Source of the DNA: a bacterium
GTDB taxonomy: Bacteria; Patescibacteriota; Microgenomatia; Levybacterales; UBA12049
Direction of reading: 5' to 3'
DNA length: 34,110 nt
NCBI GenBank assembly: GCA_041691355.1
Contig: JBEPUU010000001.1
Location: forward strand, 1 to 34,110
This document shows positions 4,087-30,687 of this stretch, piece after piece. Below the pieces are notes generated by a model. It worked only from the letters and a program-made list of their open reading frames with translations, was not told the DNA's origin and did not search any database. The translations under genes and the position numbers were made by a program. Within the stretch, counting starts at the first letter, position 1. Every line of letters starts with the position of its first letter.

Positions 4087-4851
4087 TTACCGATATTTTC
4101 CAGTAAAAATATTTCTTTTTATGCGTAAAAGATCAAGAACTCCCTGCGCAGAATCGGTAATAGGATTTACACGCCTTGTTTCAACATGAAGCCATTTAAT
4201 AGGTACTTCTTTTATTTTATACCCATGTTTCTTCGCTAAATACAAAATTTCTATGTCCGACCCATAAGTAATTGCAGTTCCTTTAATTTTTTCAAAACCA
4301 TGTTTGAGTTTTTTGTATCGATTAAAAATATCTTCTGTTGCATGACTCGTAAATAATTTAAAACCGCACTGTGTATCTGAAATCTCTTTAAGGCCAATTA
4401 TATTTTTTCGAAGAAGAACTGAACTCAACGAGATAAAGAGACGAATTGCAGGTGCACCCTTTCTTTTATCATCTCGTGAACCAATCGCGATGTCATATTC
4501 TCCACTTTCCAAAAAAGGGAGCAACTTATCTACCTCTTCAATTGGAGTTGCCTGATCCATATCGGTAAAAAGTCTATATTCCCCTTTTGCTTGCAACATC
4601 CCTGTAGTAACTGCACCGATTTTTCCGTAGTGTGGATTTTTGATGAACGTAAAACGCGGATTTTCTTTACAAAATTGTGCTATAAACTCTACACTTCCAT
4701 CTTTTGAGCCATCATCTGCAACAATCACTTCATATGAAATCTTTTTTTTGCTGAGAAAGTGCTCAATTTTATCAAGAACACCTTTCTGAAGATTGGCCAT
4801 CTCGTCGTAGCAGGGGATGATAATTGAAAGATAAATAGTATCCACGCTCAA
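4087..4851 (-). CDS. GT2 family polyprenol-phosphate glycosyltransferase (DPM1/Ppm1/ArnC-type catalytic domain)
   Basis: 254-aa ORF with LSIIIPCYDE and VIVADDGSKDGS (the GT2 DXD region) and no TM helix. The track start is TTG 4851. TATAAT at 4857..4852 lies 6 nt from GTG 4845, which may be the real start. Confidence 0.8.
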   Translation of the reverse strand: MSVDTIYLSIIIPCYDEMANLQKGVLDKIEHFLSKKKISYEVIVADDGSKDGSVEFIAQFCKENPRFTFIKNPHYGKIGAVTTGMLQAKGEYRLFTDMDQATPIEEVDKLLPFLESGEYDIAIGSRDDKRKGAPAIRLFISLSSVLLRKNIIGLKEISDTQCGFKLFTSHATEDIFNRYKKLKHGFEKIKGTAITYGSDIEILYLAKKHGYKIKEVPIKWLHVETRRVNPITDSAQGVLDLLRIKRNIFTGKYR

Positions 4852-13946: not shown

Positions 13947-14561
13947 TCACGGTTTTCGAACATGGGGATGAATAGGATAATGCACACAGTAGTTTGAGAT
14001 ATTGAATGGTAGAAAGAAAATCCACAGCATACTTATTATTAAAAGAGAAACAATTATCCAAACTCTTTTTTTAAAATTTCCATAACTGAGAAATTGATAA
14101 ATACCGTATAAAGAAAAAACTGTAAATGGCAACCATAAATAGATACTTTTTATCTGCAAAGATACTTGTGGGGCAAGAAGAATTTCAATACATGGAAAAA
14201 TAATTAGCATGGATAAAACAAACCAATGATACATTTTTTTCTTTTTATTTGAAATAATATAATAAAATCCCGCAAAAATCCCAAAATATCCAATAAGTGA
14301 AAACCAGTTAATTCCAAAACGTACATCCCAAAATTGTAGATACACTCGTAAAAAATTAATAGGATCTTGAACTAGCTTATTGTGAAATAAACGGATTAGC
14401 CAAAAAGGTTTACCCTTAAAAGCATTGATATATGTCCCTAACTGAAATACAACATCAATTGAACCGAAATGGAATATATCTGTAAAACGTTGACAGACAA
14501 ACCATCCCTGTAATGTCAGCAATTCAGTAAATGCTGTAAGAATAATGATATTTTTTTTCAT
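13947..14561 (-). CDS. membrane protein of unknown function
   Basis: 204-aa ORF with several hydrophobic helices. Its ATG overlaps the stop of the upstream ORF (ATGA at 14558..14561), suggesting translational coupling. I recognise no motif. Confidence 0.55.
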   Translation of the reverse strand: MKKNIIILTAFTELLTLQGWFVCQRFTDIFHFGSIDVVFQLGTYINAFKGKPFWLIRLFHNKLVQDPINFLRVYLQFWDVRFGINWFSLIGYFGIFAGFYYIISNKKKKMYHWFVLSMLIIFPCIEILLAPQVSLQIKSIYLWLPFTVFSLYGIYQFLSYGNFKKRVWIIVSLLIISMLWIFFLPFNISNYCVHYPIHPHVRKP

Positions 14562-29535: not shown

Positions 29536-30150
29536 TTAATTTTCAGAAACCAGCTTTGAATAGACTACCAATCTATCCGAATAATTTTTTGAAGTTTTAT
29601 CCCATGTACCATTGCAGGTAATGAGATTTAGCATAGGCACATCTGATGCCGCGAAAACGTGCTTAATTGGGAATGTATTATAGGGATACCTTTTAATTTC
29701 ACTAACAGCAAATGTATATTTTTTGCCGTTATCCTCGGTAACACTAATCGTATCGCCCATGGTTAATAGTTTTAAGTTCCAGAAGACAGCAGGCGCACCT
29801 GTTACTTGATCCAAATGTCCATCAATAACTGCGCTTCCATTCATACCGGGTTTGAAACCTGGACTGTACCATGCTGTGTCAGTAGCATTGGTTGGTACTG
29901 CCATTCTTCCCAGACTATCCATACCTACCGATTCGACTTTAGCGCTGACATGTATCTTTGGAATGGTAATTGTTTCCGGAACTCCTGGGGATAGTGTGGG
30001 TGCTGTATTTGCTCTTTCGTTTTGTACAACTGTGTGATCACCAAGAACCTGCTTATTTCTATTAATAGCATGATGAGAAGTACCATATCCGATACTAATT
30101 CCCGCTATAATTCCTATACTAATAATAAATAGAAATAATGTATTCTTCAT
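29536..30150 (-). CDS. sortase-family transpeptidase (class E/F-like) with N-terminal membrane anchor
   Basis: The catalytic triad context is AVIDGHLD (His), LNLITCNG (Cys) and SDRLVVY (Arg). The track start GTG 30177 lies inside a hairpin arm, so ATG 30150 (MKNTLFLFIISIGIIAG) is preferred. Confidence 0.85.
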   Translation of the reverse strand: MKNTLFLFIISIGIIAGISIGYGTSHHAINRNKQVLGDHTVVQNERANTAPTLSPGVPETITIPKIHVSAKVESVGMDSLGRMAVPTNATDTAWYSPGFKPGMNGSAVIDGHLDQVTGAPAVFWNLKLLTMGDTISVTEDNGKKYTFAVSEIKRYPYNTFPIKHVFAASDVPMLNLITCNGTWDKTSKNYSDRLVVYSKLVSEN

Positions 30151-30162
30151 CAAAATGTATAT

Positions 30163-30212
30163 AATGGAGCAAAACACATTATCTAATGAAAAGAAACGTA
30201 TTTTGCTCCATT
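30163..30212 (-). promoter_or_regulatory. intercistronic stem-loop between the small peptide gene and the sortase gene
   Basis: A perfect 12-bp inverted repeat: AATGGAGCAAAA (30163..30174) and TTTTGCTCCATT (30201..30212), with a 26-nt loop. It ends 12 nt before the sortase ATG. There is no clean U-tract, so it is not a textbook terminator. Confidence 0.6.
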
Positions 30213-30240
30213 TTGCATAAAAAACGACTAAATAATGTAA

Positions 30241-30423
30241 TTAGTTTACGCGACCTGTATTTGGTGCTGAAGTAGGAGCACTTACAGCAGTGGTCGGAGT
30301 GACTGTGACTGTCGTTGCGCCACTAGTAGGTGATGGTGTTGCAGTTTGTGCAAACGTCATTGTTGCTACAGCCATTGCTGAAACAGCAAATACACCTGTT
30401 GCGATTACGGCTTTCTTGATCAT
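30241..30423 (-). CDS. 60-aa secreted Thr/Pro-rich peptide ending in APNTG-RVN (candidate sortase substrate)
   Basis: A strong SD GGAGGTGA (30435..30428) lies 4 nt before ATG 30423. The product is MIKKAVIATGVFAVSAMAVATMTFAQTATPSPTSGATTVTVTPTTAVSAPTSAPNTGRVN, with a signal-peptide-like N-terminus. The track start TTG 30441 would translate the SD itself. Confidence 0.7.
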   Translation of the reverse strand: MIKKAVIATGVFAVSAMAVATMTFAQTATPSPTSGATTVTVTPTTAVSAPTSAPNTGRVN

Positions 30424-30687
30424 ATACTCACCTCCTTTCAAGTTTCTTAAGAATCACAAATTACTGTATAGTAGATATCAAGTGAAGTCGACTTTATCCT
30501 AACACCATATTATTTTATAGTCAACCATATGGCACTTTTCTTACACACAGTTAAACCTAAATCATATATATCTCATACAATCAGGCATAGAGAAAAACTC
30601 TTGCATATTCCTTACCGGATTTTGGTGGTTCTCTTAAGCAACCATACTATTATAAGAATATAAACGAAAGGAGGTGAATTACATACT

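Follow-up and report, generated by a model that had tools for sequence, protein, structure and literature searches.

The minus strand of the DNA stretch analysed here, a window of 34,110 nucleotides (contig JBEPUU010000001.1 of GenBank assembly GCA_041691355.1, a Patescibacteriota genome of the Levybacterales), carries a small gene for a putative exported peptide, an intercistronic stem-loop and a gene for a sortase, in that order. The peptide gene occupies positions 30241..30423, stop codon included, the stem-loop 30163..30212 and the sortase gene 29536..30150; unless stated otherwise, all features given below lie on the minus strand. A preliminary description of the locus had listed the Shine-Dalgarno site, start codon and stop codon of the small gene, the inverted repeat, the start of the sortase and the IDGH, LITC and DRLVV residues of the enzyme, and on direct reading of the sequence all of these are present where it placed them.

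The open reading frame (ORF) of the peptide has 60 codons and runs from ATG 30423 to the stop codon TAA at 30243..30241. Its product, MIKKAVIATGVFAVSAMAVATMTFAQTATPSPTSGATTVTVTPTTAVSAPTSAPNTGRVN, is assigned to an unnamed family of tail-less APxTG peptides by reading of the ORF and by family comparison. The Shine-Dalgarno site GGAGGTGA (30428..30435), read directly, is separated from the ATG by 4 bases, with its GGAGG core 7 nucleotides 5' of the start codon. Further upstream a consensus scan identifies a promoter-like site (30496..30524) that comprises TTGACT, a 17-nucleotide spacer and TG-TAGGAT, with 9/12 matches and an extended -10 TG; this site is a pattern match only, and the count of such sites in the region is not above shuffle expectation. 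Residues 1-25 (30349..30423) show the n-h-c layout of a signal peptide, consisting of the N-terminal MIKK, a hydrophobic core and the sequence TFA, after which cleavage in front of Gln26 is predicted. A lipobox Cys is absent. Near its C-terminus the peptide carries an extended sorting motif, A49-P-T-S-A-P-N-T-G57 (30253..30279), in which P50 is nearly invariant and P54, T56 and G57 are invariant among the relatives, and the motif is followed by R-V-N only (30244-30252). The predicted mature peptide is without Lys or Arg, and the sole charged residue, Arg58, sits in the presumed leaving group.

Conservation of the peptide and of its pairing with a sortase

The locus was compared with the best 80 genome loci for homologues of the sortase. 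A short same-strand ORF of like architecture is located directly upstream of the sortase in 38 of these 80 loci from different genomes; the recurrence of the small ORF before orthologous sortases, which the preliminary description had proposed as its own test, is thus borne out. Two more cases are provided by locus L080 (the 39th), where the peptide precedes the second of two tandem sortases, and by locus L012 (the 40th), and the comparisons of expression signals and gene neighbourhoods described below cover 39 loci. On comparison of these sequences the layout of peptide, hairpin and sortase is conserved far beyond chance. An all-against-all comparison of the 39 loci reveals no third conserved gene in the cassette: the sortase alone co-occurs in 39/39, and a Lon protease and two-component genes are shared only between close relatives.

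A profile built from the locus peptides matches at least 302 protein clusters (E <= 0.01). In all 120 of the clusters listed the C-terminus consists of [A/P]PxTG and 1-6 further residues, most often 3. Two clusters from this search were checked on long contigs, and both peptides are encoded directly before a sortase, in surroundings that are otherwise unrelated. An exhaustive single-sequence phmmer search with the window peptide gave 10 matches, all to the same family and none beyond those of the profile search.

In aligned peptides that are otherwise 30-80% identical, Q26, P54, T56 and G57 are invariant. Residue counts were made on 150 distinct family sequences, 147 of which were scored for features of the signal peptide and the mature part. 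Both the sequence reading and these counts agree with cleavage by signal peptidase I, as n-, h- and c-regions are present together with small residues at positions -3 and -1: the latter is Ala (129), Gly (16) or Ser (2), hence small in 147/147, and the former is Val (54), Ala (42) or Thr (40) in 136/147. The h-region of the family signal peptides contains a helix-breaking Gly. Position +1 of the predicted cleavage site is Gln in 149/150 and position +2 is Thr or Ser in 139/147. The mature part, counted from this Gln to the Thr of the motif, has a length of 14-53 residues (median 29) and consists of 34% Thr, 21% Pro, 13% Ala and 12% Ser; it contains Lys in only 14/147 sequences and never Cys, and a charged residue of any kind is found in 59/147 relatives. 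The C-terminal consensus of the 150 sequences is [TS]-V-P-[ST]-G-A-P-A-T-G-[RFM]-[GA]-x, with PxTG in 150/150, Ala at the first motif position in 141/150 and an additional Pro four residues upstream in 138/150. Arg or Lys occurs no more than once directly after the Gly, and in approximately 45% of the family this place is taken by Phe, Met or Leu. The middle of the peptide is free in length and sequence while its anchor points are fixed, and therefore selection acts on the protein.

The peptides have no family name, and scans of them against Pfam and NCBIfam reveal no family; the LPXTG-anchor models of both collections do not match the peptide either. Matches of the 38 aligned peptides to WGxxGxxG (E = 0.01 or worse), 'New_glue' and S-layer glycoproteins were rejected, being driven by composition and far below the cut-offs. 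Exact look-up of the window peptide, in its 60-residue form and in a 66-residue form, returned no record in the gene and protein collections, and of 10 peptides checked, that of the window among them, 9 are missing from a set of 15 billion predicted proteins. Gene callers mostly miss the peptides of this family. The full-text literature searched, which does not extend to subscription-only papers, nowhere describes a natural sortase substrate that lacks the tail or carries APxTG. The suggestion of the preliminary description that peptide and sortase could be a dedicated enzyme-substrate pair of an undescribed kind accords with the lack of a match in Pfam, NCBIfam or the searchable literature.

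Some further observations concern the number and state of the genes. The complete 1.61-Mb chromosome OZ246394.1 contains two separate cassettes (L006 and L010) at a distance of ∼300 kb, and thus the pair can be duplicated within one genome. Class-F-like sortase genes occur as tandem pairs in L031 (2186-3492) and L080 (2830-4480), and in L080 the tail-less peptide is encoded between the two sortases, before the second one. The peptide ORF of L031 reads ...PSGAPSQNSN and looks frameshifted or decayed in its motif. When the compared loci were examined for the Ala-Gln junction as a general feature of secreted proteins, few other secreted proteins were found in them.

The sortase and its relation to class F pairs

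The sortase comprises 204 residues and is identified by Pfam, NCBIfam, AlphaFold and Foldseek. Its match to the sortase superfamily (PF04203, peptidase C60) scores 73.5 bits at a cut-off of 26.6 (E = 1.6e-20) and covers profile positions 1-125 of 125. The His-Cys-Arg catalytic triad of the superfamily, marked by TLxTC and a downstream Arg, is formed by His112 in IDGH (codon 29815..29817), Cys179 in LITC (29614..29616) and Arg193 in DRLVV (29572..29574), all in invariant columns of a 31-sequence alignment (A1). In the AlphaFold2 model, which has a predicted local distance difference test score (pLDDT) of 81, a membrane helix of residues 3-23 (30082..30144), assigned from the secondary structure and the pLDDT profile, is followed by a disordered linker (residues 25-51) and a barrel (58-203). 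Foldseek comparison with solved SrtA, SrtE and SrtC structures gives a probability of 1.00 and a target-normalised TM-score of up to 0.77, and the predicted fold is the eight-stranded beta-barrel normal for sortases, preceded by a membrane anchor at the N-terminus. A sequence search of the Protein Data Bank (PDB) yields no close solved relative, the best match being SrtD from C. perfringens with E = 1e-7.

With respect to class, the sortase matches the NCBIfam class F model NF033748 over its full length with 140.1 bits, which is below the curated cut-off of 166 bits. All the same, class F leads the other classes by more than 100 bits, with class E at 24 bits, and near relatives that are called 'class F sortase' in NCBI records score 136-148 bits against the same model. 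The label 'class-F-like' is the defensible one on these scores. SrtF from Cutibacterium acnes is the member of this class that has been studied biochemically. Homologues of the sortase are found in metagenome-assembled genomes of the Candidate Phyla Radiation (CPR, or Patescibacteria), labelled Levyibacteriota, Roizman-, Davies- and Gottesmanbacteria and 'Saccharimonadales', and in Chloroflexota. In a neighbour-joining tree of the catalytic domains the peptide-linked sortases make up one CPR clade. Many contigs that are evidently of CPR/Microgenomates type (L002-L004, L006, L010, L014-L016 and others) are titled 'uncultured Gammaproteobacteria', and other such contigs bear the titles Methylomirabilota, Limnocylindrales or Lysobacterales; these titles look mislabelled or mis-binned.

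Pairs of an annotated class F sortase and its substrate occur on plasmids of Planococcus lenghuensis, Streptomyces sp. NBC_01324 and Rhodococcus sp. WAY2. They share with the CPR cassette the best-matching sortase class (NF033748) and the position of the substrate gene, immediately upstream and on the same strand, although this gene order is an empirical regularity from three annotated loci and no curated criterion. The sorting motifs are also related, each being an xPxTG-like sequence with small residues and Gly behind it (..PDTGFGG and ..PETGAGG on the plasmids, ..APATGFGG in CPR). The plasmid substrates, which read EMPDTGFGG, GGVETGGGS and GHPETGAGG at this site, continue with a hydrophobic segment of ∼20 residues and an Arg/Lys tail, and thus carry a full sorting signal behind a real passenger of 250-500 residues. 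In contrast, the CPR peptides (e.g. ...APATGFGG with the stop codon directly after it) stop at the point where the transmembrane segment of the class F substrates would begin. They end 1-6 residues past the Gly, have a low-complexity passenger of 14-53 residues and differ further by the Ala at motif position 1 and by the extra upstream Pro.

A form between the two is encoded in locus L073 (Paceibacterota, 2559-2777), directly upstream of a class-F-like sortase. The protein has 72 residues and reads MNTKKIVSTFALASLLLAGAASA/QTTTPEVTTPGVPETGAGG, after which come a transmembrane segment and RKGVRE; it shares its signal peptide with the tail-less family and has an AQTTTP start and a PGVPETG motif. 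It is an apparent evolutionary intermediate, namely a mini-substrate which has kept its full tail. In sister clades of the tree the sortases are likewise directly preceded by proteins with a motif, a transmembrane segment and a basic tail (L053, L067, L064, L079 and L077). The tailed class F pairs and L073 therefore point to descent of the CPR cassette from canonical substrate-sortase pairs, and the simplest history that these sequences suggest would start from a class F pair, in which the passenger shrank to a Thr/Pro linker and the anchor was then lost.

Among the tailed proteins, those of L053 (2181-2756) and L067 (2346-2828) are rich in His and Asp (HDDHD..HHEHHDHDE) and display canonical [LM]PxTGGGF signals beside class-F-like sortases; the L067 protein has a weak ZrgA-like match, and both may be wall-anchored metal-binding proteins. 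A different arrangement is seen in Chloroflexota, also among the sister clades, where the sortases are directly preceded by Tat-signal proteins with a Ferritin_2 domain that end with MPxTGRGG and 11-21 non-hydrophobic residues (L048, 1581-2366; L057, 1634-2305; L060, 1804-2478; L066, 1864-2538; L068, 2210-2410). Their C-terminus is a putative sorting signal of a second, independent kind without a membrane segment, here combined with a folded and probably metal-binding passenger.

The stem-loop and expression signals of the cassette

The stem-loop between the two genes (30163..30212), found by inverted-repeat search and folding, contains a perfect 12-bp inverted repeat (30163-30174 and 30201-30212). 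The repeat extends to arms of 18 nucleotides (30195-30212 and 30163-30180) with 89% complementarity. The 106-nucleotide intergenic RNA has a predicted folding energy of -30.4 kcal/mol, compared with a shuffle mean of -12.9 kcal/mol (z = -6.2), and 0/200 shuffles are as stable. Of the 28 loci whose intergenic gap is at least 30 nucleotides, 24 show a hairpin with z < -3, and the median z is -5.3. The underlying sequences differ, and in an alignment of 12 loci compensatory double changes occur at 10/15 consensus pairs. In 11 loci the gene spacing is -1 to 12 nucleotides and there is no hairpin.

Several identities of the hairpin were considered. An intrinsic (Rho-independent) terminator was rejected, as there is no U-run and the terminator scan makes no call, and occlusion of the sortase start codon was rejected since it occurs only in the fold of the window and is not conserved in other loci. 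A search of the hairpin region (30157-30214) against Rfam 15 reveals no family at the gathering threshold. The best match is to the Plastid-psbA-2 3' untranslated region, which scores 37.6 bits and is below the gathering threshold of 55.8 bits (E = 1.5e-5); this match probably reflects the generic shape of an AT-rich hairpin. The psbA stem-loops stabilise the transcript of a gene with high expression, and intercistronic hairpins such as those of the Rhodobacter puf operon set the stoichiometry of small abundant subunits. In layout and predicted fold the CPR hairpin resembles both, as a stem-loop without a U-run that follows a small, apparently highly expressed gene and precedes a gene of lower need. 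We infer that the hairpin is a device for differential expression, acting by partial termination or by protection of the 3' end of the upstream transcript.

The ribosome-binding sites point in the same direction. Shine-Dalgarno sites of the AAGGAGGTGA type precede the peptide ORF in 38/39 loci, whereas a recognisable Shine-Dalgarno site precedes the sortase in 5/39 loci. In the window itself a strong site is found in front of only 2 of 32 genes, the peptide gene and a divergent gene for a 58-residue KGG-repeat stress protein, both with a perfect GGAGGTGA. Most other genes of the window have a TATAAT-like box shortly 5' of the start codon, at a distance of 5-15 nucleotides (e.g. at 4851, 5860, 16476/18860, 19466, 21040 and 33344), which suggests that the messenger RNAs of the window are mostly leaderless or have a very short leader. 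With Shine-Dalgarno sites nearly absent from the window, the lack of one at the sortase is normal here and the site of the peptide is the exceptional one; translation of the peptide probably proceeds at a very high level. The preliminary description had read the order of peptide, hairpin and enzyme as a substrate made in excess over its processing enzyme, and this fits both the distribution of Shine-Dalgarno sites and the covarying hairpin.

The proposed reaction and its alternatives

Natural sortase substrates require, according to the textbook, a motif, a hydrophobic segment and a charged tail. The window peptide shares with canonical LPXTG proteins and SrtA substrates the Sec signal, a C-terminal PxTG with Thr-Gly as the expected scissile bond, and a Thr/Pro-rich segment before the motif, as in wall-spanning regions. 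Compared with a canonical sorting signal of the TIGR01167 type, it contains the pentapeptide (APNTG), but the hydrophobic segment and the charged tail are both absent. It is probable, on the sequence comparisons given above, that the two-gene cassette of Microgenomates-type CPR bacteria is composed of a dedicated class-F-like sortase and a mini-substrate with a truncated signal, which is made in excess, cleaved between Thr and Gly and transferred to an amine of the envelope.

In this cassette, the first gene encodes a predicted cleavable Sec signal, a disordered stretch of ∼30 Thr, Pro, Ser and Ala residues and the motif V-P-x-G-A-P-x-T-G with 1-6 residues behind it, and the second gene, located behind the stem-loop and without a Shine-Dalgarno site, would supply the membrane-anchored sortase at a lower level. 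After export of the peptide by the Sec pathway, Cys179 would attack the T56-G57 bond, upon which G-R-V-N leaves, and the Thr carboxyl would be passed on to an envelope amine, most probably that of a peptidoglycan precursor, as with other housekeeping-type sortases. The wall would then be decorated with short Thr/Pro-rich peptides, possibly glycosylated, which begin with Gln or pyroglutamate. Through the Gln at +1 the small exposed peptide may become capped with pyroglutamate; alternatively, this residue may be an acceptor site. Three features could substitute for the missing membrane retention: with so short a peptide, the motif would lie close to the membrane-tethered enzyme for as long as the signal peptide is engaged, the recognition motif extends beyond five residues, and the substrate is presumably present in excess. 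Precedent for a soluble substrate comes from S. aureus, where living cells take exogenous LPETG peptides that have no hydrophobic segment into their wall by means of SrtA, concentrations of ∼0.1-1 mM being required (PMC4723074); this requirement fits the need for a high substrate level. Both substrates are short, soluble and motif-bearing and have no membrane segment. The S. aureus system is, however, an artificial one with added peptide, whereas the CPR peptide is encoded, conserved and apparently exported.

Several observations weigh against this proposal. Approximately 10 sortases of the peptide-linked clade, including a Roizmanbacteria sub-clade, have no peptide nearby. Tailed canonical substrates elsewhere in the genome may also use the sortase; a scan of the 34-kb window finds no canonical sorting signals, and a window of this size gives the scan little power. 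A U-run is absent after the window hairpin and rare after the homologous ones, and the hairpin may act in attenuation, in stabilisation of the transcript or otherwise. In addition, Schneewind and colleagues reportedly found in the early 1990s that in S. aureus anchoring is lost once the hydrophobic or charged tail has been removed; a signal without a tail must therefore rely on some compensating mechanism, here a postulated one.

The reaction might also end differently. The amine of Gln26 could act as nucleophile towards another or the same copy of the peptide, which would result in a macrocycle or in a linear Thr/Pro-rich polymer such as a mucin- or extensin-like fibre or brush. This is an unlikely outcome. 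In its favour, the Gln at +1 and the Thr or Ser at +2 are conserved beyond the needs of signal peptidase, the rarity of Lys would leave the N-terminus as sole amine, a passenger domain is lacking, the substrate is apparently in large excess over the enzyme, and a growing chain held as acyl-enzyme needs no transmembrane tail. With considerable doubt, one can envisage an N-terminal Gln-Thr that accepts the Thr carboxyl of the next peptide and gives rise to a genetically encoded, possibly glycosylated head-to-tail surface polymer. The peptide also lacks the marks of a sortase-assembled pilin, a pilin-motif Lys that serves as nucleophile and immunoglobulin-like domains, since the window's mature part has no Lys and no folded domain. 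Yet an N-terminal Gln is not known to serve as sortase nucleophile, and its tendency to form pyroglutamate by cyclisation leaves the amine blocked; both L073 and the tailed class F substrates suggest that the reaction was originally an ordinary anchoring to the wall. A macrocycle is further disfavoured by the low-complexity, length-variable sequence, which is unlike that of a specific bioactive ring. Somewhat less probable still is a tether between membrane and wall, in which the N-terminal helix remains uncleaved and the C-terminal Thr is joined to peptidoglycan, as in the staple that Braun's lipoprotein (Lpp) forms in a different envelope. The h- and c-regions of the window peptide together count ∼21 residues, enough to span a membrane, and an N-terminus held there would account for the missing C-terminal anchor. 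Like Lpp, which is attached by L,D-transpeptidases, the peptide would be a small and probably abundant envelope protein whose C-terminal end is joined to peptidoglycan by a Cys-transpeptidase. Lpp differs, however, by its lipid anchor on an N-terminal Cys, its helical structure, its attachment through a Lys side chain and its unrelated enzyme, whereas the CPR peptide has no Cys and a signal of the signal-peptidase-I type. The preliminary description had offered an uncleaved helix as membrane anchor as one of two possibilities; the residues at -3 and -1, the near-invariant Gln at +1 and the Gly in the middle of the helix, all typical of cleavable signal peptides, speak against this, as do the lack of a lipobox Cys and the tailed homologue L073, which has the same N-terminus without needing an anchor there. 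A transient, kinetic retention by the signal peptide is possible.

Hydrolysis instead of transfer has a low probability. The sortase would in that case serve mainly in maturation, as a protease that removes the last 1-6 residues with water or a small amine as acceptor, and the secreted peptide might function in adhesion, in a matrix or in signalling. Release is indeed the default fate of a peptide without a retention tail, sortases hydrolyse their substrates if no nucleophile is present, and several members of the family weakly match a low-complexity 'glue' Pfam family, probably by composition. On the other hand, it is hard to see what would be gained by trimming a disordered peptide by three residues, characterised sortases are all transpeptidases in vivo, and the homologous class F pairs carry full anchoring signals. 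Most improbable, and already disfavoured, is a regulatory leader, i.e. an upstream ORF rich in Thr codons that controls the sortase by means of an attenuator hairpin, as in the leader of the thr operon. The Thr content of the mature region and the stable hairpin between the ORF and the downstream gene are reminiscent of such a leader, but conservation is found at the protein level, in the signal peptide, the Ala-Gln junction and an invariant PxTG whose distance to the stop codon is fixed, while nucleotide sequence and length vary. Moreover, the hairpin has no U-run, the 11 closely spaced loci have no hairpin, and the downstream gene is unconnected with threonine supply.

If wall anchoring by the dedicated sortase is the correct interpretation, a large conserved family that keeps the motif alone represents a departure from the three-part rule for sorting signals. 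The proposed substrate has been overlooked by gene callers and possibly constitutes a major component of the CPR envelope that has hitherto been invisible; the few charged residues of the mature peptides imply that tryptic proteomics will seldom detect them. A sortase family is reported to be nearly universal among Microgenomates, for which no substrate was named (PMC6744442). The physiological role of class F sortases is stated as unknown (PMC13251363; PMC8225981), and a 2026 study of Actinoplanes in which all four class F sortases were deleted reported no phenotype (PMC13251363). The one-enzyme, one-substrate pair described here is open to synthesis and assay, with VTPTTAVSAPTSAPNTGRVN and VPSGAPATGRAN as substrate peptides, and makes the role of class F testable. 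For recognition of APxTG, the S. aureus sortase had to be engineered or evolved, with the aim of ligating histone H3 (PMC8248031 and others), in which this motif is A29-P-A-T-G33. The CPR clade may hold natural APxTG-specific sortases that accept soluble substrates, with a possible use in ligation. Should head-to-tail ligation occur instead, it would be a natural sortase-catalysed polymerisation without pilin lysines or membrane tails, and ultra-small bacteria would possess in its product a protein counterpart of teichoic acids or mucins.

Some other genes of the window were also inspected. The ORF at 13947-14561 (minus strand) likewise encodes 204 residues; it matches no Pfam family and is not a second sortase. 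On the plus strand, divergent from the peptide gene, are located the gene of the 58-residue KGG-repeat stress protein (PF10685; 30688-30864) and, next to it, a gene for a GlsB/YeaQ/YmgE 'transglycosylase-associated' membrane protein of 90 residues (PF04226; 30911-31183), which recurs in 6/39 loci.

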